Notes: a model not told the origin generated them from the sequence alone. A DNA stretch of 64,000 bases from an uncultured Marinobacterium sp. (GCA_963666955.1 OY762942.1:297269-361268); one strand, 5' to 3'; positions 25,328 through 40,680 are shown, counted from the stretch's first letter. Program-made: numbers and translations.

Positions 25328-27657
25328 GCCGCTGCCGCCCTGTCTTCACGCAGCACCCTGGCCGCTTCGACCATGTTCTGCAGCGCCGGAATCACCTCGC
25401 TCCACTGGCGGGTTTTCAGGCCGCAGTCCGGGTTGACCCAGAGGCGTTCCGCCGGGATCCGCTGCGCCGCCAGGCGCATCAGTTTCACCATCTGCTCCAC
25501 CGACGGGATGTTGGGGCTGTGGATATCGTACACGCCCGGGCCGATCTCGTTGGGGTAACGGAAGTCATCGAACACGTCCAGCAGCTCCATGTCGGAACGG
25601 GAGGTCTCGATGGTGATCACGTCCGCATCCATGTGCGCGATCGCCTCGATGATGTCGTTGAACTCCGAATAGCACATGTGAGTGTGGATCTGGGTGCCGT
25701 CCGCGACGCCGTTGGCGGTGATGCGGAAGGACTCCACCGCCCAGGCCAGGTACTCGGCCCACTGGCTGCGGCGCAGCGGCAAGCCTTCACGCAGCGCGGC
25801 TTCATCGATCTGGATGATGTCGATGCCGGCCGCTTCCAGCTCCTGCACTTCCTCGCGGATCGCCAGCGCCAGCTGCTGACAGCTGACCGCGCGCGGCTGA
25901 TCGTCACGCACGAAGGACCAGTTCAGTATCGTCACCGGGCCGGTGAGCATGCCTTTCATCGGCTTGTCGGTCAGCGACTGGGCGTAATTGATCCAGTCGA
26001 CGGTCATCGCCCTGGGACGGCTGATATCACCGAACAGGATCGGCGGCTTGACGCAACGGGAGCCGTAGGACTGCACCCAGCCGAACTGGCTGAAGGCGTA
26101 GCCGTCGAGCTGCTCACCGAAGTATTCCACCATGTCGTTGCGCTCGGCCTCGCCGTGCACCAGCACATCCAGCCCCAGCGCTTCCTGCTGCTGCACCGCG
26201 AACTCGATCTCCTGCTTCATGCGGGCTTCGTATTCGCCTGCATCCAGCTCCCCCCTCTTGAATGCCAGGCGCGCCTTGCGGATCTCCTGCGTTTGCGGGA
26301 AGGAACCGATGGTGGTGGTCGGGTAGAGCGGCAGGTTCAGCTTGTCACGCTGCACCGCCGCACGCTGCGGATAGGCGCTTCGGCGCTCGCCCAACGCGGC
26401 GTCGATGGCAGCGACGGCCTGCTGCACGCGGGGGTTATGCACACGCGGCGAGGTACGACGGCTGCTCAACGCCGCCAAATTCTCGGCCAGCTCGGCGGCG
26501 ACAGACGCGCGGCCATGATTCAGGGCGCTGTGGATAACCCGCAGCTCATCCAGTTTTTGCTGGGCAAAGGCCAACCAGGAGCGGATCTCGGCATCCAGTT
26601 TCTGTTCGCTGTCCAGATCCACCGGCACATGCAGCAGCGAGCAGGACGGCGCAATCCACAGGCGTTCACCCAGCTGTTTCGCCACCGGTTCCAGCCAGTC
26701 CAGCAACGCGCTCAGGTCGGTTTTCCAGATGTTGCGGCCGTTGACCACACCCAGCGACAGCACCTGTTCATCGCTCAGCTGCTCGATCACCGTACCCACT
26801 TCCTCGCGAGCGTTGATCGCATCCAGATGCAGACCCGCCACCGGCAGGCTGCACGCCAGTTCCAGATTCTCGCGCAGCTGGCCGAAATAGGTGGCCAGCA
26901 GCAGCTTCACACCGCTGTCGGCCAGGGCCGCATAGGCGGTGCGGAAGGCGTCCTGCCACTCCTGCGCCAGCTCGGTGACCAGCGCCGGTTCATCGATCTG
27001 CACCCATTCGACACCTCTGTCGGCCAGCAATGAGAGCAGCTCGGCATAGACCGGCAGCAGCTGCGCCAGCAGGCTCAACGGGTTGGTCTCGTCCTTGGCC
27101 TTGCCCAGCAACAGATAGGTCATCGGCCCCACCAGCACCGGCTTGGCGTTATGGCCCTGCTCGCGGGCCTCTTCCAGCTGGCCCAGCAGGCGATCCGGGT
27201 TCAGGCTGAAGCGGGTATCGGCGCTGAACTCCGGCACGATGTAGTGGTAGTTGGTGTCGAACCACTTGGTCATCTCGCCGGCATGGACGCAGTTGCAGCC
27301 GCTGTCGTTGGCGGAGCGGCCACGGGCCACGCGGAAGAACTGGTCCAGCTCGCTGCCATCCAGCCCCTGCACGCGGGCGGGCAGGTTGCCCAGGGTAACG
27401 CTCAGGTCCAGCACCTGATCGTAGAGCGAGAAATCGCCCACCGGCACGAGGTCCAGACCGGCCTGACGCTGCCAGTTCTGCTCACGCAGTGCGGCCGCCG
27501 TACTCAGCAGTTCGGCTTCGCTTTGCTCGCCTTTCCAGAAGGCTTCCTGGGCAAATTTCAGTTCACGACGGGCCCCGATGCGCGGGAAACCCAGGTTATG
27601 CAGACGACTTTTTGGGGTTGGCTGAAGGCTATTATTGTTGCTTGGCTGAAGGCTCAT
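25324..27657 (-). CDS. metE: Cobalamin-independent methionine synthase
   Basis: ORF 25324-27669. MetE-like throughout ([17 protein letters not shown]...). The second ATG, preceded by GGAGAG, is preferred as the start. Confidence 0.9.
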
Positions 27658-27807
27658 GTCTCTCTCCATATTTCAATTCGAGAAAGATGCTAGCCCTTAT
27701 AAATCATGAAAAATAATGGCATTATCTCATAATTCCATTAAATTTAGTCATGCTTCTAATGCAAAAAATGATTTTGTTCGCTCCAAATAAACACCCTTAA
27801 CTTAGTA

Positions 27808-28440
27808 TCAGTGACCACCCATTTCCTGTTCCAGGATCTCGCGTACCTCATCAACAGTTTCTCGGTAGTCGTACACAACCATGTAGAACAGCGCCAGCTT
27901 GAAAATATCCATACCTCTATCATTGGTATGCATGACGTCAACATCTTGGGTCCGCAGGTATTTCACCATATTCGGGCTATTGTATTTAACAGCATAAAAC
28001 ACAGGTGTGGAACCTGAAGCATCGGTCTGCTCGAGAGAAGCTCCCGCCTTAACCAGAACTTGAAGACACTCGGGACTTTTCTGTGTCGCGGCTCGGTGAA
28101 TGGGCCAGGTTCCATCTTCGGCAGGCTGATGAATCTGAGCACCCTGTTCAATCATGGCTTCAAGCATGTGGGCAGCACAATCGGTACTCAGCAGCTCAAA
28201 CATGGGGGACATCCCCGTGATTGGGTTAATGACGTTGGGATCCTCGCCTGCAGCAAGCAGTTGCCTGAATGTGTCCCAGTCCTTATACGCAAGGGCCTTG
28301 CTCAATGGTGGCAACGCCTGAAGAACAGCCTGATGCGTCTGCTCATTCTTCTTGGTCTCACGCTCGGCACCACACACAAGTGTCGACACACTAGTCAATA
28401 GAGCACTTACCAGAAGAGCTGATTTAATGTAATTATTCAT
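27808..28440 (-). CDS. Secreted ankyrin-repeat protein
   Basis: 210 aa with a signal peptide (SALLVSALLTSVSTLVCGA) and several ANK-like repeats (e.g. GSTPVFYAVKYNSPNMVKYL). Codon usage is AT-rich. Confidence 0.75.
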   Translation of the reverse strand: MNNYIKSALLVSALLTSVSTLVCGAERETKKNEQTHQAVLQALPPLSKALAYKDWDTFRQLLAAGEDPNVINPITGMSPMFELLSTDCAAHMLEAMIEQGAQIHQPAEDGTWPIHRAATQKSPECLQVLVKAGASLEQTDASGSTPVFYAVKYNSPNMVKYLRTQDVDVMHTNDRGMDIFKLALFYMVVYDYRETVDEVREILEQEMGGH

Positions 28441-28444
28441 GTGA

Positions 28445-28885
28445 TCAAAGTTCCTTTATTCTTTGCCACAGACTCTTAAATTCACACTCGTCTTTTTCTG
28501 AAAATTTAACTAGAGCACCAACGTAATCTTTTCTTGAAATCATATCAGTCACACTCAAATACCAGCCCAAGTCAGTTCCATTTTTATAGGCACATTCTTC
28601 GGCGTTCTTCCTAAATATTATACTTAATAAAGCATTAGCCCCCTTTGCATCCAAAAGAGCTATTGCCGGACCAATCATAGCTCCAGATGCTTTAGACAAG
28701 GTTGCTTTCATGAAGGGCCTTCCTGCCTTGGGCTCTCTGGTCAGGATCACACCTTCATGCTGAACCAAGATAGTTATCCCATGCTCAGCTTTAAGATATT
28801 CACATGAAAGACGCCCAGGAAAATCTCCAAAAGACTCTTCTATAAACGCCTTTAAGTCATCATCCACACACAAACTAGATGTCAT
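28445..28885 (-). CDS. Hypothetical protein (AT-rich cassette, upstream partner of the ankyrin gene)
   Basis: 146-aa ORF ending 4 nt upstream of the ankyrin gene start, same strand. No family recognised. Confidence 0.55.
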   Translation of the reverse strand: MTSSLCVDDDLKAFIEESFGDFPGRLSCEYLKAEHGITILVQHEGVILTREPKAGRPFMKATLSKASGAMIGPAIALLDAKGANALLSIIFRKNAEECAYKNGTDLGWYLSVTDMISRKDYVGALVKFSEKDECEFKSLWQRIKEL

Positions 28886-29161
28886 AAATCAAATTCCTTT
28901 TTTAATTTATTCCAATTATGTATTATGATACAACGATATATGGTAATTACTTATACGATATCATTAAGTTTAGGTAAACTATTAAAAGCTTCATAACAAA
29001 TAATTATATGATCATAAGTTTATATTTATAAGAATATGTCTGTAATTAAATACGATTTAAAACAACTTTTGGTTTATTAGTCGGATATTAAAACTACTGG
29101 ACCGTAACAATATAACCGAAACCTACATATAAGACTTTATGGTTACCATGGACAAGATCTC

Positions 29162-32702: not shown

Positions 32703-33311
32703 ATGAATGCGCACACCCCATCATTTCATACCCGCCTGATGCGCCAGCTTGAACAGCAGGAAGGCCGCATCAACCATATGTATCGCGACACCCGAGGCTT
32801 TATCACCATCGGCGTTGGCCACCTGATGCCCTATCCGCATACCGCTGCCCGATTGGGGTTTGTGCACAAGGAAAGCGGACGCCCCGCCCGCGATGCCGAC
32901 ATCCGTGCCGAATTCCGCCAGCTGCTGACCCGCCCCTACGGGAAGCACCTGAACGCCAACAGCTTCAAGCCCCACACCCGACTGATTTTGCCCGACACCG
33001 AGATCGATGCCCTCACCCGCCGGCACATCAGCATCTTCACCGGGGAACTCGGCGACCTCTATGGCCAGGCCGAACTGGCCGCCATGCCGGAACGCGTACA
33101 ACTGGCCCTCTACGACATGATCTTCAACCTGGGCCTGCCCAAACTGAAGCGCGGCTTCCCTCGCTTCAATCAACATATCCACAACGGCAACTGGGCCGCC
33201 GCCGCCCATGAAAGCCACCGCAAAGGCATCAGCGAAGCACGTAATCGGCATGTATACAAATTGCTCAGTGGAAAAGTCCATCAACAGGATACTACACAGG
33301 CCGACACATAG
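32703..33311 (+). CDS. GH24 (T4-lysozyme-like) muramidase family protein, no signal peptide
   Basis: 202 aa. LEQQEGRINHMYRDTRGFITIGVGHL parallels the T4 lysozyme E-x8-D-x5-T catalytic segment. Confidence 0.7.
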   Translation: MNAHTPSFHTRLMRQLEQQEGRINHMYRDTRGFITIGVGHLMPYPHTAARLGFVHKESGRPARDADIRAEFRQLLTRPYGKHLNANSFKPHTRLILPDTEIDALTRRHISIFTGELGDLYGQAELAAMPERVQLALYDMIFNLGLPKLKRGFPRFNQHIHNGNWAAAAHESHRKGISEARNRHVYKLLSGKVHQQDTTQADT

Positions 33312-33637: not shown

Positions 33638-34102
33638 ATGACGGATATTGTTGATAAGGCGACTCGCTCAAGAATGATGTCATCCATCAGAGGAAAGGAC
33701 ACAAAGCCAGAGATGGCCGTCAGGCGATTGTTACATGCAGCTGGCTTTCGCTACCGCCTTCACCGCAAGGATCTGCCAGGCAAACCGGACCTGGTCCTGC
33801 CAAAATATAACTTGGTCATTTTTGTTCATGGCTGCTTCTGGCACCGGCATCCGGGATGCCATTACGCATATACGCCAGCATCAAACAGTGACAAGTGGAA
33901 GGCAAAGCTGGAAGGGAACAGGCAACGGGATCAAATCCAGCAGCAGCAACTGCTCGATATGGGGTGGCGTGTGCTGGTTATTTGGGAATGTGGACTAAAG
34001 CACCTGGAAGCAAATCTCGCGGAAATCACATCGATGATTTTGGGCCACGCTGAAATCTGCGAGTGGCCCAAAAAGCCGCCAAGAAAAAAGGCCCGAAGCT
34101 AA
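33638..34102 (+). CDS. vsr: Very-short-patch repair endonuclease
   Basis: 154 aa, Vsr-like (RSRMMSSIRGKDTKPEMAVRRLLHAAGFRYRLH...FVHGCFWHRH). Confidence 0.9.
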   Translation: MTDIVDKATRSRMMSSIRGKDTKPEMAVRRLLHAAGFRYRLHRKDLPGKPDLVLPKYNLVIFVHGCFWHRHPGCHYAYTPASNSDKWKAKLEGNRQRDQIQQQQLLDMGWRVLVIWECGLKHLEANLAEITSMILGHAEICEWPKKPPRKKARS

Positions 34103-34105
34103 AGG

Positions 34106-34318
34106 CTACAGATACATCATCGCTGGTTTACGCCTTCCAGCCTCCAGCCATTTATCAAGCGCCTCAATGATAAGGTTGAAGTGCTCACATATCTGATCAA
34201 CGCTCCAACCGTCCCACTCGTAAAAGGATCCTGTCTTCGGATCAACACAATCTTCATTAATCAGATACATATTTGCATCAACATAATCGTGCGCATCAGA
34301 GAAGGCACAAATTTTCAT
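34106..34318 (-). CDS. Hypothetical small protein
   Basis: 70-aa ORF with AGGAAG upstream of the ATG. AT-rich island codon usage. Confidence 0.4.
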   Translation of the reverse strand: MKICAFSDAHDYVDANMYLINEDCVDPKTGSFYEWDGWSVDQICEHFNLIIEALDKWLEAGRRKPAMMYL

Positions 34319-34580: not shown

Positions 34581-34766
34581 CTATTCCAACAGATCGTAAA
34601 CCACTTTCGCGATCTTATAAGCTAAGTAAGGTGGTATCGCATTTCCCACCTGAACATATTGTTGCGTTCTGTTGCCTTCAAAATGATCATCATCCGGAAA
34701 GGTCTGAAGTCTGGCGGCGTCCCTGACTGTAAGGCTCCTGCACTTTACAGTCGCGGATAAAGACAT
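34581..34766 (-). pseudogene. Fossil 3' end of a DNA (cytosine-5) methyltransferase gene (motifs IX-X only)
   Basis: Encodes [44 protein letters not shown]. By eye this is about three-quarters identical to the C-terminus of the intact dcm at 39118-40680. No upstream methyltransferase motifs are present. Confidence 0.75.
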
Positions 34767-34798
34767 AAAAAAGACCTACCTAATAAAATCGGCAGGCC
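34767..34798 (-). terminator. Rho-independent terminator of the four-gene operon
   Basis: On the minus strand, GGCCUGCC, a 10-nt loop and GGUAGGUC (two G-U pairs) are followed by a T6 run. It abuts the dcm fossil directly. Confidence 0.5.
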
Positions 34799-34839: not shown

Positions 34840-35613
34840 TTATCTTTCACCCTTAGCCCATAAAGATGCAGTCTTGAGCAAAACATTGAGGTCGGGAAGG
34901 TCCAGCATTCCTATATCACGATATCCGTTAATCAATGTCAGGTACTGCATGATTCGATGAAGATATTTATCAGTTGCCTTCTCACCTAAAGATGCTGCAT
35001 GGTTTAGCACCGCTTTCGTTATAGTAGAAAATGCGCCGACCTCACGATCGAAAATCGCATTAAGTCGATCTTCTTTTTTGAACACTTCTTTCGTATATGC
35101 GTACGGATCATATTTTGCGATACCTGACTTATCTTTTCCCTCGTAAGTCAAATGCGCAACCCACCATAGACGGGCAATACCATGGCGTACAAGCCGCCCC
35201 CTTGTAACAGAATCGCTGTGCAGCAACCAACGTGTTCTTACACGATCCTTCCACTTTCCTCCCTGCTCGTAGATAGTTTCCAATGGCCAACGTTTCTCCA
35301 TATAATCCCGATAGGTTCCAAAAGCCAAATACACCCACAATCTAGCGTCAGCGGCATTTGCACGGTCCATCTCCCCTAGATATTCATGCACACGAGGGGC
35401 ATTATCGACATCCACGCCTTTTATACCGGCAATACTCAAACTATCAGGTACACCATGCTCTATCGGTAGCGGAAGGTGATTATTTGGGTTGGCAACAATA
35501 GCATCTGCATTACCCATAAACTCTTCAGGTGAGGAGGCCTCACTCAGCGCATTAAAAATCTGAATTAATGCCGATTCAGTCAGTGCTCTGGCCTCAGAAA
35601 TCCGTTTTTTCAT
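34840..35613 (-). CDS. Unknown protein, fourth gene of the GHKL operon
   Basis: ORF 34840-35616. ATG at 35613 preferred (TGATG overlap with the upstream stop, GAGGAGGAAG upstream). 257 aa, no motif recognised. Confidence 0.7.
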   Translation of the reverse strand: MKKRISEARALTESALIQIFNALSEASSPEEFMGNADAIVANPNNHLPLPIEHGVPDSLSIAGIKGVDVDNAPRVHEYLGEMDRANAADARLWVYLAFGTYRDYMEKRWPLETIYEQGGKWKDRVRTRWLLHSDSVTRGRLVRHGIARLWWVAHLTYEGKDKSGIAKYDPYAYTKEVFKKEDRLNAIFDREVGAFSTITKAVLNHAASLGEKATDKYLHRIMQYLTLINGYRDIGMLDLPDLNVLLKTASLWAKGER

Positions 35614-36467
35614 CAAGCTTCTTCCTCCTCAGACATAAGCCCTGCGCGAATAGCTGTATCAATTGGATTTTCAAGAATCTTCTGCGCAAGCTCAAGCAGA
35701 GACTGATTCCAGCCACCACGAGCTTTGACCAGCTTATTTATCTCCATGTACCAAGCTTTGTCATCAAGGGGCTCTTCTTCTTTCTCTTCGTTTGTTTTTA
35801 TGAAATCGAGCGTTTCTATAAGTGCAGGGAGTACTATCAGTGAAATCTGCAGATCGGGTCGATGACCGAACAAATGGAATTGGCCAAAGGTTTCCTCTGG
35901 AATCTGAACATCTACAGTATCGTTGCCATCAAAAGCTACTTTGATTCCCTTACGGTGCGGGCTGCACACAAACCTGAAACAGCTTCCAACCGGTGGATTC
36001 AGCGGGTCATACATTTTCTCAGCATCAAACAGGAAACTCCCCCCATCAGCAAGAACATCCCCCGGCTGAAGGTTAAAACACGCATCTCCGTAATCAGCAT
36101 GCTGATTCGTCCAGCGATGGTTCGGCAGCTCCTTCGCAACAATAATGCGCACATCTGCATCAACTCTGCCTTTAACCAACTGTTGATCCAGCCAAGCCCT
36201 TAGCTTGAACCCTGCAGGTGTTCTTTGATATTCCTCCGGCATCATCTCACCGGTTGATATGGTGGAAGAGCAGCGCCAACGCAAGCTATGGACTGCGTAG
36301 CCATTGTCTAATAGATGCTTGAGATCAGGGTCATCCGTCCTAATTTCATAGGATATTTCGATATCCTGCTGGCTAGTATCAACAAGCACATTTATAACAT
36401 TGAAGTCAGAAGATACGTCATCGGCTATATCAATAACCGGATGAGGATATGAGCCACGACTTGCCAT
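35613..36467 (-). CDS. Unknown protein, third gene of the GHKL operon
   Basis: 284 aa with an acidic C-terminal tail (MSEEEEA). Joined to the GHKL gene by a TAATG overlap. No motif recognised. Confidence 0.7.
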   Translation of the reverse strand: MASRGSYPHPVIDIADDVSSDFNVINVLVDTSQQDIEISYEIRTDDPDLKHLLDNGYAVHSLRWRCSSTISTGEMMPEEYQRTPAGFKLRAWLDQQLVKGRVDADVRIIVAKELPNHRWTNQHADYGDACFNLQPGDVLADGGSFLFDAEKMYDPLNPPVGSCFRFVCSPHRKGIKVAFDGNDTVDVQIPEETFGQFHLFGHRPDLQISLIVLPALIETLDFIKTNEEKEEEPLDDKAWYMEINKLVKARGGWNQSLLELAQKILENPIDTAIRAGLMSEEEEA

Positions 36468-38371
36468 TATGCTACCCCCAGACGGTAACGCTCACCGGCA
36501 GGCATATAGATATCAATACGTGTCATCTGGCCGCCCTCTAATGTCAAATTTTTCAGCGTGTTTCCCGAAAACTCAAGCTCAACAGACTTATCGGACTGAT
36601 GCAGAATTACGCTCGAAATAGGGAGTTCATAATCCTTTTCGGGATCTCCTGCGGGGCCTAAAGCCAAAAGTTTAAGGTCGCCGGTCTCGTTCCTTTCTGC
36701 CTTAATGGCTAATGCCGTTACTGAAGCAGTTTCATGACCGCTATGCATGCTCCAGCTTCGGAAGGACACATCTTGACCTCTAATACGAGATGCACCTTCG
36801 CCTTCACCCCCTTTTCCCGGAATACCCGTTTTATCACTACTGCGTTTTTTTGGTCCGCCCCTAGTTTTACCCTGTTCTGCTTCATCTTCACCATTATCCG
36901 TTGCTGGCGTACGGATTTTGACCGAAACTTTTTTCCCAAGTGAAGCTGGGGTGATTTCTTGCTTCGCAGCTCTACCTGTAACAGTACTGGATTCAGTTTC
37001 AGCACCTTCTTCAGTTGGTTCTGATGTAGGGATTACAGGCTCGCCTGACGTGTTAGAAAACACATTTTTGGTAGGTAAAAAGCGTGCAAGCCCTTCGATT
37101 TTAACTTCATCACCTGTTTCTGTAGTAATCCTCTCCTTGAGTGATTCACGCACAAAAGCCTTTAGGTCACGAATGACCTTCGCTCCATTCTGTAGATCTC
37201 TGGCAGCATCCCACTCATGATGCTGGGGTGGCTCCAGTTGTCGCAAATATTTATTGCCTTCCTTGCTGTCACAAACTAGCACCGCAGCGTACTTCGCTGA
37301 AATCGAGTTGTGTCTGAAGATGTCGATCTTCATCAAGGGTGCACGCATTGTTATGGTGTGCAGTTTTTGCTTAAGGCTGTCATCTATGTTGATGAACAAT
37401 TTTACCCTCCCAACATGCTTTATATCTTTCTCAGCTGGGTTAGGATCTTGAAGTGCCTGATAGAAAGCGTTGGCAACTGGACGAGCTTTGACAAACTCAG
37501 GCAAAGTCGCAGCATCAAGCATCCATTGATTTTCGGATGCGATACCTTCAACTATAAGACGCCCCTCTTTAATCGCAGCCATGAAGTTGTCTATCATCGC
37601 ATCACGAACCCGCTCTAACTTCGGGTCCTTCTCCGCCATTCTGTAGCCCAGAATGTATATATCGGTGCCGTGTTCAGTTCTTGCCGGGAAGGGGCCGATC
37701 TTCGGTGCTGGTCTCTGATATTCAAAATCGTTTTTACAATCCAACCATGTAAAATACCCCTCTGCGCGATACCTGGTGTCATTCAGGGTATGGGTTGCAA
37801 GCCTTGTATATCCAGCCATAACCGACTTATGCGTATCCTCGGGGAGCGAGGTATAAAGCACCGTGCACAAGTCTGAAGCCATAGGGCCAACGGCTGATCC
37901 AATCCCGAATGATCCGCCACGCTCGTCATCGCTTGATCCACCTTTACCACGGGTCAATCGACTGATTGGCGAACCTTTAGCAGCCAAGGCCTCGCTGCCT
38001 GTAAGCCCTGTAGTGTTGTAGTCCGAAATCCTGAGTACCGATACTGTCTCTTCCTTCGACAAAGCAGCAGCCTTGACCATTTTGGCATGGCCTTGTTGGC
38101 TCTCTGTCTGCTCCGCAGCGGCATTGAAGTGCTCTCGCAGGCCATCAATCCCAGGAATGTCGCTGGTGTTCATGACCGAAAGCTCAAAGACCATCCGGAT
38201 AGGACCATCAACCTTCTTGCCAGGATTATCCAGAGTGTTCTGGCCAGTCTCACGTACAACCGCATGGTCAGCATGAGAACCTTCGAAATATTGTTGCGCA
38301 GGATCGATAGGCCCCTCGTCACCAGACAAGCCCTGCTTTTCAAAATAAAACCCGTAGTTGTTGTCCGACAT
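36467..38371 (-). CDS. GHKL (Bergerat-fold) ATPase, MORC/paraMORC-like
   Basis: 634 aa. Motif I is ExxxNxxD (VVRETGQNTLDN), motif II is ISDYNTTGLTG, and the glycine lid is GGSFGIGSAV. A long acidic/Gly-rich linker and a C-terminal domain follow. Confidence 0.7.
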   Translation of the reverse strand: MSDNNYGFYFEKQGLSGDEGPIDPAQQYFEGSHADHAVVRETGQNTLDNPGKKVDGPIRMVFELSVMNTSDIPGIDGLREHFNAAAEQTESQQGHAKMVKAAALSKEETVSVLRISDYNTTGLTGSEALAAKGSPISRLTRGKGGSSDDERGGSFGIGSAVGPMASDLCTVLYTSLPEDTHKSVMAGYTRLATHTLNDTRYRAEGYFTWLDCKNDFEYQRPAPKIGPFPARTEHGTDIYILGYRMAEKDPKLERVRDAMIDNFMAAIKEGRLIVEGIASENQWMLDAATLPEFVKARPVANAFYQALQDPNPAEKDIKHVGRVKLFINIDDSLKQKLHTITMRAPLMKIDIFRHNSISAKYAAVLVCDSKEGNKYLRQLEPPQHHEWDAARDLQNGAKVIRDLKAFVRESLKERITTETGDEVKIEGLARFLPTKNVFSNTSGEPVIPTSEPTEEGAETESSTVTGRAAKQEITPASLGKKVSVKIRTPATDNGEDEAEQGKTRGGPKKRSSDKTGIPGKGGEGEGASRIRGQDVSFRSWSMHSGHETASVTALAIKAERNETGDLKLLALGPAGDPEKDYELPISSVILHQSDKSVELEFSGNTLKNLTLEGGQMTRIDIYMPAGERYRLGVA

Positions 38372-38595
38372 TAGAAACTCACCTTCCTTGTTGATGGAGA
38401 CTCAGTATCGAAAAGGGCTCGAACTTCCTTTAGTTCTTGCAGAATCGGTTCAAATAGCCGCTCAACTTCTTCCTCTGAGTAGGAATAGTTCTTTCGATTA
38501 GCCAAGTTTCCGAGTAGAGAAATTTCACGGATTAGCCGATTGCCTCTGGACTCGGCAAGCCTTCTGAATCGTTCATTTTTTGTTTCAGTGCTCAT
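38371..38595 (-). CDS. Small basic/helical protein, first gene of the GHKL operon (possible controller)
   Basis: 74 aa (MSTETKNERFRRLAESRGNRLIREISLLGNLANRKNYSYSEEEVERLF...). TAATG overlap with the GHKL gene. The start lies 18 nt from a palindrome array. Confidence 0.6.
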   Translation of the reverse strand: MSTETKNERFRRLAESRGNRLIREISLLGNLANRKNYSYSEEEVERLFEPILQELKEVRALFDTESPSTRKVSF

Positions 38596-38612
38596 ATCTG
38601 CGTCAGGAACTT

Positions 38613-38653
38613 CTATATATAGGATATATATCCAATATATTCTCTATATATAG
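38613..38653. promoter_or_regulatory. AT-rich palindrome array (candidate operator/promoter of the GHKL operon)
   Basis: CTATATATAG at 38613-38622 and again at 38644-38653 (31 bp apart), flanking GGATATATATCC at 38622-38633. All three are perfect palindromes. Confidence 0.5.
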
Positions 38654-39078
38654 GTTTCGCAACTCCCATTTCCACACGATAATTTGTTAAGGCTGATTCA
38701 GGGCCAGTCAGTGTCAGAGGGTATGAGATTACCCTAGACCATGTCCTGATGACGTTTCCAATGAACGCAGATGATCCAAACTATGCTCATCAAAAATGAG
38801 AACCCTGAAGTGGTAAACCGACTCGCTTTCGTTATTAATAGTGAGTTCAAAATCGGTAACTCACACTGTGAACTGGAAAAAACAGGAGCTGGAGCTAGGT
38901 GAGAAAATCTAGACAAGCAAATGATAGCAGAGCACTGGATGGGTTAGATGTTAACTGCTGTGCAAGTTGAGCGGGAATCCTATGGAGTGCTTTCAGGTTA
39001 GAAGCTGATGCTGATTGTTTGGCAATAGAGTTCAGACAGTCAAAACAACCGTCTTGGTCTCTGCGACTACGCATGACC

Positions 39079-39113
39079 AGCCCCCTTCCCTGTTACCAAG
39101 AAGAAAGGGGGCT
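39079..39113 (-). terminator. Hairpin immediately after dcm (possible terminator)
   Basis: AGCCCCCTT / AAGGGGGCT 9-bp stem with a 17-nt loop, 5 nt beyond the dcm stop. No clear U-run on the minus strand. Confidence 0.35.
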
Positions 39114-39117
39114 TGTA

Positions 39118-40680
39118 TCAAATAATTTTTGCAACAATACCTGCGAGCTGAAAAGCCAGATACGGCGGTACTGCATTACCTACCTGCACATACTGTTGAG
39201 TGCGATTCCCTTCAAAAAAATAATTATCGGGGAACGTCTGAATCCGGGCAGCCTCACGCACTGTCAAGCTCCGGCATTGGGCAGGATCCGGATGTATGAA
39301 GTAGTGACCATCTTTGGAAATGTGGCTGGTCACTGTAGTCGCAGGCCGGCCATAGCGCTGTACTCTGAAGCGATCAGCGAACTTGCCACTTTTCCAGTTT
39401 GCATGCGCAGGAGCAAGTATTTTCGGGTAGTCTTCCGATTTAGGAAACGGCTTATCCGTACTTCCATATACATCAGGTTGAGCCCAACAAGCACTGAACA
39501 AGTAACGGGCGAGATCACTGTTCATATGCCCTCTTGCATGATGGTTCAGCACTTTTCCCGGCTTATCCGACAGCAGCCAACGTCTGATTTCTACCCCAAG
39601 CTCTTTCTGCCCTTTGAGTTGTTCCGGATAGTCAGTACCAATGATAGGCGCACTGTATGCAAGGTATTGCATGGTGTCCCTCATCTCATCTACTACTTTC
39701 TGATACTTAATGTTGCTACTCAGTGACGCTTCCACACCTCTGACAGCATCATGGATAACTTCACGCCAAGCATCAGAGCTGTCCTTTTGCTTAGAAAGCT
39801 TGCTACGAAGCACAGGTAACCCATCCAGAACCGCTTCAACAGGTACTTCTTCCTGCTTCACAAGTGATGATGGCGTCACCTCAGCATCTACTGCAACCCC
39901 CAACAAAATAACCCTGTGACGAGCTTGCGGTACACCGAAATCTTCAGCTCGGATGACGAAGTCGCTGATGTCTTTATACTCAGCAGCCTTATAGTCACCT
40001 CTGTCAGGTTGTTTCACAAAGGAGTAAACCCGATACTTTTTACCATTAGGGCTCTGATGAACCGCTAAATCAGGGTTCATCAGGTCTTGAAGTATCTTGG
40101 GAAAGATATGCTCGCCGTCCACTTTCGCCGACAAAATGCCTTTCACATTCTCCATGACAAATACATCAGGCTTCATGATAGACAGTACATTGAGGTATTC
40201 CCGATAGAGAAAGTGGCGATGATCATCTTTCGCTGAATATCCCACAATTCCCATATTCCTCGCACGTCCAACCAATGAATATGCTTGGCAGGGCGGCCCT
40301 CCAATCACGACCCAGGGTTCATCTTTGTATTCAGATTTCAACTCTCTCAATCGGGAGTGAATCTTGTCGTTATCATCTCCCAGAGCAGTTGGCCCACCTA
40401 ATGTCTCTTTTCGTGCCTCTTCCCACAACATCGGATGACCAGAAGTTAAAGAGGCCTTAGAAATACGCCCTTCCACATAGTCGAAATATGCAGCCGTATT
40501 GCCCTTTTCTTTCAGCAAACGGAAAAATGCACGAAGCGTCAGTGTCTTATGAGCACTCTCTTCACGCTCAACTGACATACGAATTTTGAACTCGGCCTTT
40601 TCAGACTCAAACGAGCTGAAGCCTTCACCCAAGCCACCGGGACCTGCGAATAAATCAATAATGTTTACAGTTCTTTTCAT
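39118..40680 (-). CDS. dcm: DNA (cytosine-5) methyltransferase
   Basis: 520 aa. Motif I is FAGPGGLGEGF, motif IV is GGPPCQAYS, motif VI is ENVKGIL, motif VIII is QARHRVILLG, and motifs IX/X are RSLTVREAARIQTFPD and QVGNAVPP. Confidence 0.9.
   Translation of the reverse strand: MKRTVNIIDLFAGPGGLGEGFSSFESEKAEFKIRMSVEREESAHKTLTLRAFFRLLKEKGNTAAYFDYVEGRISKASLTSGHPMLWEEARKETLGGPTALGDDNDKIHSRLRELKSEYKDEPWVVIGGPPCQAYSLVGRARNMGIVGYSAKDDHRHFLYREYLNVLSIMKPDVFVMENVKGILSAKVDGEHIFPKILQDLMNPDLAVHQSPNGKKYRVYSFVKQPDRGDYKAAEYKDISDFVIRAEDFGVPQARHRVILLGVAVDAEVTPSSLVKQEEVPVEAVLDGLPVLRSKLSKQKDSSDAWREVIHDAVRGVEASLSSNIKYQKVVDEMRDTMQYLAYSAPIIGTDYPEQLKGQKELGVEIRRWLLSDKPGKVLNHHARGHMNSDLARYLFSACWAQPDVYGSTDKPFPKSEDYPKILAPAHANWKSGKFADRFRVQRYGRPATTVTSHISKDGHYFIHPDPAQCRSLTVREAARIQTFPDNYFFEGNRTQQYVQVGNAVPPYLAFQLAGIVAKII

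Follow-up and report, generated by a model that had tools for sequence, protein, structure and literature searches.

S-A-B-C, a GHKL ATPase operon beside a C5-methyltransferase gene in Marinobacterium: a candidate cytosine-methylation-coupled defence system that extends the catalogue entry PDC-M33

Described systems and how the locus compares with them

ATPases that join a GHKL domain to an S5 domain have been reported near genes for Dcm, Vsr, EcoRII-like and HNH proteins, and they were predicted to be components of restriction-modification (R-M) systems (Iyer, Abhiman and Aravind 2008, PMC2292703). Among the described relatives, paraMORC3 is the Shedu type I-D protein VcSduA, whose ATPase is needed for defence (PMC12137116), and the mzaABCDE system (Gao et al. 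2020), of which mzaA is reported to be a sigma factor, has been described as validated (PMC9523054). Here we analyse an operon of four genes, S, A, B and C, in a stretch of 64,000 nucleotides from an uncultured Marinobacterium sp. (GCA_963666955.1 OY762942.1:297269-361268; this whole stretch is called the window below, and positions are those of the window unless a locus number is given). The four open reading frames (ORFs) lie on the minus strand: S (38371-38595, 74 aa), A (36467-38371, 634 aa), B (35613-36467, 284 aa) and C (34840-35613, 257 aa). Upstream on the same strand is the gene of a full-length C5 cytosine DNA methyltransferase of 520 aa, Dcm520 (39118-40680). Both are part of an island of 7.5 kb (approximately 33.4-40.9 kb) with a G+C content of 46%, compared with 58-63% in the flanks, and the region of 33.6-40.7 kb is a horizontally acquired island.

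The proteins A, B and C match the PADLOC-DB v2 models PDC-M33A (6.3e-81; residues 7-633 on profile positions 4-621 of 627), PDC-M33B (5e-31; residues 6-275 on profile positions 7-278 of 289) and PDC-M33C (2.7e-29), and their genes are contiguous and in the order A>>B>>C as in the entry CAS_00129. PDC-M33 is one of 145 "guilt-by-embedding" phage defence candidates (Payne et al. 2024, bioRxiv 10.1101/2024.01.29.577857); it is listed in supplementary file 8 only (CAS_00129, FAM_02818>>FAM_02838>>FAM_01881, with a first-column count of 98) and is not discussed in the main text of that study. The entry comprises three genes and omits both S and the linked C5-methyltransferase. We found no annotation or mechanism for it, and the name PDC-M33 is a catalogue label with no function attached. 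A preliminary description of the locus, made from the sequence alone, had called the system undescribed and had not been able to assign it to a named one, while noting that a confident profile assignment would speak against its novelty. With the three PADLOC matches, with the Pfam family DUF6339 for C (1.3e-41) and with a GHKL and S5 theme that goes back to 2008, neither of these statements stands. What is new beyond the catalogue is S as a member of the unit, an operator found across phyla, the pairing of S with other GHKL proteins, a minimal island of five genes and the Mza-type methylase.

We lean towards reading the island as a cytosine-methylation-coupled, Mza-like defence system, which would consist of Dcm520 (with Vsr as its repair companion) and of S-A-B-C, that is, PDC-M33 extended by S. 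The setting is that of a defence island on mobile DNA, given the PDC-M33 matches, the restriction, Mza and Shedu genes that are neighbours of related loci, and the low G+C content of the island.

The likeness to Mza is one of layout: in both cases a multi-gene operon with a small first gene and a GHKL (MutL-like) ATPase lies beside a long Dcm and Vsr. Moreover, the closest plasmid relative of Dcm520 is the methylase at the head of a canonical vsr|dcm-MzaB-MzaC-MzaD-MzaE locus, carried by an Agrobacterium plasmid (L028); the two share 46% identity over the full length (527 columns). Dcm520 can be assigned by sequence to a "long" Dcm type, which is found beside Mza systems too; homologues of 517-530 aa flank S-A-B-C in L003, L008, L011, L013 and L034-L036. 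On the other hand, the comparison of A with a true MzaB gives a BLASTP E value of 0.5, none of S, A, B and C matches a Mza model in PADLOC, and a tblastn search of MzaB-E against the whole window returned nothing. S-A-B-C would therefore seem to share the genomic niche and the Dcm type with Mza, but to belong to an unrelated GHKL family and to have other partners. The idea that S-A-B-C is an in-place replacement of MzaB-E is weakened by three loci that carry both sets directly side by side, with MzaC, D and E in L008 (13050-17813) and L013 (13167-17823) and MzaB in L009 (12076-17520). In these loci two GHKL-based systems are neighbours.

With MORC and paraMORC1-5 the operon has in common the GHKL and transducer (S5) architecture and the neighbourhoods of Dcm, Vsr, EcoRII-like and HNH genes. 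It differs from them in that A is not detected by HATPase_c_3, that there is no helicase partner, and that the partners are S, B and a DUF6339 protein. BREX pairs a methyltransferase with large proteins without an obvious restriction nuclease, and here, as in BREX and in DISARM class 2, a methyltransferase is found with several such proteins; the best PADLOC match of Dcm520 is the DISARM methylase DrmMII (7e-93). However, no PglZ, BrxC, BrxL, DrmA, DrmB or DrmC is present, and none of A, B, C and S matches any of these models in PADLOC. Type II R-M operons can be controlled by C proteins, for example those of PvuII and Esp1396I. The operon resembles them in its small first gene, S, which overlaps the second gene and has palindromic boxes in its own promoter, but S has no match to a helix-turn-helix (HTH, Xre-type) model and rather the look of a helical hairpin, and the downstream genes do not encode a restriction endonuclease. 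As for classical type II R-M systems, no restriction enzyme family was found in any ORF of the island (PADLOC, Pfam, NCBIfam), whereas related loci carry enzymes of EcoRII, MvaI and Sau3AI type.

Conservation of the unit and its proteins

The four ORFs had been described before at these coordinates and on this strand, together with stop/start overlaps of 1 nt at every junction, and we confirm both: the overlaps are TAATG between S and A (base 38371), TAATG between A and B (36467) and TGATG between B and C (35613). Purine runs resembling Shine-Dalgarno sequences precede A, B and C. To see how far the unit is conserved, we considered one genome per species, which gave 20 loci, 19 of them complete (L010 and L017 are near-identical and so do not count as independent). 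The order S-A-B-C, the orientation and the tight junctions of 0-3 nt are kept in all 19 complete loci, whose hosts are Gammaproteobacteria and Actinomycetota (Bifidobacterium among the latter) and so span two phyla. That the four genes form one unit, which had been proposed from the single locus, is thus borne out.

The unit also occurs on plasmids of Deinococcus, Priestia and Paenarthrobacter and in the temperate Clostridium innocuum phage NatCom_9291 (L026 1907-8274), where it adjoins the integrase. In these plasmid and phage copies A is only about 26% identical to A of the window. The C protein of the phage has 354 aa; a 167-aa gene and a C5-methyltransferase are part of the same integrase-adjoining region, and an AAA_5 ATPase comes after it. 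Relatives of A-B-C that lack S were found on an L. salivarius megaplasmid (L022 4519-10479), after hsdS and hsdM (N6-adenine) and before MmeI-type genes, and on a Lactococcus plasmid (L021), near an AlwI R-M system. At the position of S the megaplasmid has an 80-aa gene that is unrelated to S and membrane-like. Some copies look partly decayed: A is apparently frameshifted in the Deinococcus plasmid (L023 7001-8890), DUF6339 is shortened in Paenarthrobacter (L027 10257-10601), and in a metagenome-assembled genome Dcm is split into overlapping ORFs (L018 11229-11997), which could be an assembly error.

The preliminary description had asked whether the four genes co-occur with a Dcm across genomes, and they do. 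A C5-methyltransferase was found within 8 kb of 26 of the 27 cassettes that contain S (18/19 genome loci in a sensitive search, 7/7 further loci, and the window), a near-obligate adjacency. The position and the strand of the methylase relative to S-A-B-C vary, and it may be upstream, downstream, convergent or divergent; the linkage itself is therefore likely to be under selection, rather than reflecting shared descent of one arrangement. Two arrangements are especially compact. In L008 and L013 the Dcm gene comes at most 100 nt after C, on the same strand, and in Spongiibacter the entire insertion between a TonB receptor gene and uvrB consists of S-A-B-C and a convergent Dcm of 527 aa. Other neighbours among the loci, besides the Mza genes, are Shedu, a SIR2_2 protein and type III R-M genes; ordinary transposases were seen near some of the loci.

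The largest protein, A, carries the Bergerat motifs I (ExxxNxxD), II (DxGxG-like) and III (GxxGxG), which are ordered and conserved. Among 20 aligned homologues, with identities as low as 47%, E41, N45 and D48 of motif I, D117, T120, G122 and G125 of motif II (with the spacing D-x4-G-x2-G), and G153, G156, G158 and S159 of motif III are invariant, and K360 is likewise invariant. The AlphaFold2 model of A (mean predicted local distance difference test, pLDDT, of 74.8) is folded in residues 1-421, followed by a disordered linker (422-527) and a beta-sandwich (approximately 530-634). In Foldseek the part 1-421 matches Hsp90, the LN40 fragment of MutL, the 43K fragment of GyrB, ParE, Topo II and MORC3 in alignments of about 450 columns (E values from 1e-7 to 1e-4); against 1nhh, 2cg9, 3zkb and 5ix2 the model aligns over 410-480 columns with probability 1.0. 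By these fold matches of its predicted structure A is therefore a GHKL ATPase with a transducer (S5-like) domain, its catalytic motifs are intact, and the earlier recognition of a GHKL/MORC-like ATPase agrees with both the motifs and the fold. The sequence searches were far less informative: no Pfam family matches A at E<=10, HATPase_c_3 included, except for a chance match to BsuBI_PstI_RE_N, there is no NCBIfam match, and a search against PDB chains gave no useful match. No nuclease or TIR domain is fused to A. The long acidic and Gly-rich linker noted before corresponds to the disordered segment, which is Gly/Lys-rich and acidic and contains a conserved ESSTVxG motif, while the C-terminal domain, then left unplaced, can now be modelled as the beta-sandwich.

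For B, the AlphaFold2 model (pLDDT 84.6) shows a beta-sandwich in residues 1-190 and then a helical C-terminal domain. Its invariant N-terminal motif RGSYPHP..D..DD is retained even in a Firmicutes homologue of 24% identity. Foldseek searches of the model against PDB and BFVD returned only generic beta-sandwiches similar to immunoglobulin (Ig) or carbohydrate-binding module (CBM) folds, phage baseplate and tail proteins included, with template modelling (TM) scores of at most 0.31; we take these matches, which concern a predicted structure, as no evidence of function. The same searches gave no nuclease, helicase, P-loop, TIR, Toprim, Spo11-like or recombinase fold. C, the DUF6339 protein, contains many invariant Arg and Trp residues and an acidic cluster, E181-D182-R183...R190-E191. 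A motif in C similar to the HEPN signature R-x5-H (R138...H144) was considered and rejected, since the L. salivarius homologue does not share it and one close homologue has lost it. Profile searches found no PDB relative of C, and the sequence and profile searches of PDB with B, C and S gave no matches or helical noise only. Pfam scans at permissive thresholds, run with S, A, B and 22 homologues of C, showed nothing beyond DUF6339, and none of the four proteins has a match in PHROGs.

The small protein S is the most conserved of the set, with 64-88% identity among the genome loci, compared with 37-72% for A, 35-80% for B and 33-69% for C, and it still has 35-55% identity in Priestia, the Clostridium phage and Deinococcus. 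It matches no model in Pfam, NCBIfam, PADLOC or PHROGs. Its family, with 1742 clusters at 50% identity, is far larger than that of A; the members mostly have 70-100 aa, some occur in tandem, and in a few there is a fusion to a DUF4357/RAMA-like or SprT-like domain. S-like genes also stand first in other operons, which are carried by alphaproteobacterial plasmids. The gene after the S-like one encodes, in Dinoroseobacter (L032 6983-9089) and Agrobacterium (L033 7016-9091), a protein of 621 aa that has GHKL motifs and a weak, sub-threshold HATPase_c_3 match and, in Ensifer (L031 7001-9640), a protein of 800 aa in which only a motif I-like sequence is present. These pairings suggest that S is a recurrent companion of GHKL-like ATPases, and there may be a wider class of "S plus GHKL" modules. 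As a side observation, the S-like operons of L032 and L033 lie upstream of a Gabija-like pair of genes, one for an "ATP-binding protein" and one for a UvrD helicase.

Upstream of S we find a candidate promoter and operator (38600-38665, minus strand) with sigma-70-like boxes, namely a -35-like TTGCGA (38657-38662) and a -10-like TATATT (38634-38639), and with palindromes, namely two perfect copies of CTATATATAG (38613-38622 and 38644-38653) and one of GGATATATATCC (38622-38633). The 64-kb window has no copy of CTATATATAG other than these two, and 0.12 copies would be expected in it. A related motif, TTGAC...CTAYATTT-N2-3-GATATATAG, is found 25-60 nt upstream of S in 18 of the 20 loci, including actinobacterial genomes with a G+C content of 65-70%, and in 390 kb of loci the inverted-repeat pattern was matched 11 times, always at most 120 nt ahead of S. 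Deinococcus and Paenarthrobacter, too, have similar elements in front of S. Judging from these elements the operon has its own promoter, and S is a probable autoregulator and/or obligate partner of the ATPase A. By analogy it may act like the C proteins of R-M systems; instead, or in addition, it may be a subunit of the ATPase.

A proposed methylation-coupled defence and its alternatives

If the island is a methylation-coupled defence system, it might work as follows. Dcm520 would mark the host DNA with 5-methylcytosine. Transcription of the operon would start at its own promoter with the palindromes, which S probably autoregulates in the manner of the C proteins of type II R-M systems, so that A, B and C would appear only once the genome carries the methylation. 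A would be an ATP-driven dimerising clamp of the MutL/MORC type that acts together with B and C, to which it would probably be tethered via the flexible linker and the beta-sandwich. The A-B-C complex would then survey DNA and act on DNA that lacks the mark, and the effector step could reside in B, in C (DUF6339) or in the ATP-dependent clamping itself. Since no known nuclease fold was found, we propose that the outcome is maybe a non-nucleolytic exclusion, as has been proposed for BREX, or else depends on a new catalytic fold. If this holds, five genes, as in the minimal island of Spongiibacter, would be a compact means to study the reading of a DNA methylation mark by a MutL/MORC-type ATPase, and they could show in what way DNA is kept out when no recognisable nuclease is present, a question shared with BREX-like systems.

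Several observations weigh against this reading. Literature searches on PDC-M33, on DUF6339 and on defence by GHKL proteins with Dcm found no characterisation or experiment among the papers covered. S, B and C have no helicase, P-loop, nuclease or TIR domain in searches of Pfam, NCBIfam, PHROGs and PDB sequences; the same had been judged by eye for these three proteins, and the fold of B is in line with it. S is read as a DNA-binding regulator solely because it co-occurs with the conserved operator, while profile searches of PDB gave only helical-hairpin noise and no HTH model matches it. The methylases in the neighbourhood differ in family and, as far as their restriction partners indicate, in specificity (CCWGG-type, GATC-type), and the alignments of A, B and C show no obvious hypervariable specificity domain. 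In addition, one intact cassette has no methylase within 8 kb (L004 7777-11443, from Oceanospirillales bacterium XeTr1); it also lacks the conserved operator motif and is flanked by ordinary genes such as pheT. The S-less relatives of Lactobacillales are located in N6-adenine type I or AlwI R-M loci and not beside a Dcm.

The last two observations are also those that one would expect if S-A-B-C were a self-contained, methylation-independent cassette for defence or abortive infection, which senses a phage product or process and is carried along with R-M genes for joint transfer and regulation. The set was found by "guilt-by-embedding" and listed without a methylase, its position relative to Dcm varies, the operon has a promoter of its own and dcm a hairpin of its own. 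However, ordinary clustering in defence islands is much looser than the adjacency to a C5-methyltransferase in 26/27 cassettes, the Spongiibacter island has only the five genes, and in L008 and L013 Dcm stands right after C on the same strand. We regard such an independent cassette as unlikely, though it deserves to be kept in mind.

The restriction enzymes in the related loci raise a further point against a simple methylation-coupled scheme. In 14-15 of the 27 loci Dcm has a classical restriction partner (EcoRII-like in ten loci, MvaI-like in two, Sau3AI/MutH-like in one, and others), so that S-A-B-C is not simply "the R subunit". It could instead guard the adjacent R-M system, being kept inactive by the methylase or the R-M complex and triggered by an anti-restriction factor of a phage, like PrrC in the EcoprrI type I locus. 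Payne et al. (bioRxiv 10.1101/2024.01.29.577857) name PrrC as the classic case of embedding, and S-A-B-C or its relatives are in or beside complete R-M systems in at least 14 loci, the type I system of L. salivarius included. Yet the partner R-M families are unrelated (EcoRII, MvaI, Sau3AI, type I, Mza), which makes a common physical interaction unlikely, and about 11-12 loci, the window among them, have a Dcm but no restriction enzyme to guard. A guard function thus appears quite improbable to us.

A more far-reaching version of the methylation-coupled reading can also be formulated. S-A-B-C might be a nuclease-free immune module in which a bacterial MORC-like clamp, loaded with B and DUF6339, senses 5-methylcytosine in general and not at one particular site. 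DNA without the mark would be blocked or compacted, so that the module would be the prokaryotic equivalent of MORC-mediated silencing, and S would define a much larger, so far unrecognised "S plus GHKL" class, with 1742 clusters and with S-like genes at the head of at least two further types of candidate GHKL ATPase operon. We consider this version speculative and, as a whole, doubtful.

Dcm520, Vsr and the surroundings of the island

The preliminary description had placed a full-length 5-methylcytosine methyltransferase upstream of the operon and vsr in the same island, and the profile searches support both. Dcm520 matches Pfam DNA_methylase (3.8e-45) and TIGR00675 (1e-34). Its stop codon is followed by a GC-rich hairpin (39079-39113, minus strand; -23.9 kcal/mol, z -3.9) without a U-run; none of 200 shuffled sequences was as stable, and the hairpin probably ends or stabilises the dcm transcript. 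Between dcm and S there is a spacer of 522 bp with two short ORFs inside. Because of this spacer and the strong hairpin, dcm and S-A-B-C are probably separate transcripts.

Vsr, the very-short-patch repair endonuclease (33638-34102, plus strand; TIGR00632 2.5e-43, Pfam Vsr 4e-33), is the usual companion of a Dcm and is present in 13 of the 27 related loci. This frequency, together with a fold of A that is MutL-like, invites an explanation without immunity: S-A-B-C could be an accessory that cuts the cost of a C5-methyltransferase, either as a MutL-like helper of Vsr at T:G mismatches or as a remover of trapped methylase-DNA adducts. A functional interaction of E. coli MutL with Vsr is known (cited in PMC2292703). 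The linkage to C5-methylases of several specificities, rather than to one site, fits such a role, as does the fact that no toxic effector domain was found. Many of the hosts are Actinomycetota, which are not known to have MutS and MutL. On the other hand, Vsr is missing from half of the loci, MutL is present in the gammaproteobacterial hosts, and for the S-less relatives in N6-adenine R-M loci the repair of 5-methylcytosine damage would be irrelevant. Furthermore, in a phage the cassette is part of the accessory region near the integrase, and the genes were catalogued among those embedded in defence systems. A repair accessory is in our view rather improbable; were it real, cytosine methylases would have a new kind of helper that makes them less costly in mutations, which would count most in Actinomycetota.

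At its 3' end the operon has a terminator-like hairpin (34767-34798, minus strand) with an 8-bp stem, GGCCUGCC/GGUAGGUC, followed by U6 (z -2.3 compared with shuffles). The stem and the T-run are thus present as first described; since a generic terminator scan gave no excess (6 sites, compared with 6.9 in shuffles), we rate the terminator as plausible rather than strong. Directly 3' of it lies a remnant of a second dcm gene (34581-34766, minus strand) that comprises the last 61 codons with motifs IX-X (Pfam DNA_methylase 1.6e-12, profile positions 274-322 of 324). With only about 70% DNA identity to the 3' end of the Dcm520 gene, a recent duplicate of Dcm520 is ruled out; the arrangement suggests that the block of Dcm520 and S-A-B-C replaced most of an older dcm beside vsr.

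Such a replacement by recombination, in an island that has no integrase, transposase or tRNA, might be taken to mean that the cassette serves the mobility or maintenance of the methylase island, for example by topoisomerase-like DNA transactions of the GHKL protein, and the fold of A does match the ATPase domains of topoisomerase II, GyrB and ParE as well. We find this very improbable. B has no Toprim, Spo11-like, recombinase or nuclease fold, and S and C have no such Pfam domain; no terminal repeats were noted around the island; and other loci do carry ordinary transposases nearby. The absence of tRNA genes extends to the whole window, and Rfam has no match within the island. With 8 CCWGG sites in 7.5 kb, where a rough estimate for that G+C content gives about 11, the island shows no clear depletion of these sites.

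The genes that flank the island are ordinary ones; on one side they encode a Sir2 deacetylase and a lysozyme-like protein, on the other an HPP membrane protein and AhpC/AhpF. The lysozyme-like ORF at the left edge (32703-33311, plus strand, 202 aa) matches Pfam Phage_lysozyme (2.7e-5) and a PHROG endolysin (1.8e-8), and no further phage genes were seen close by. Between the dcm remnant and vsr there is a 70-aa ORF (34106-34318, minus strand) without a match in Pfam, NCBIfam, PADLOC or PHROGs. Finally, a second patch of low G+C content (about 0.49) at 27000-29000, adjoining metE, may be another acquired segment; it contains an ankyrin-repeat protein (27808-28440) and an unassigned ORF of 146 aa (28445-28885).

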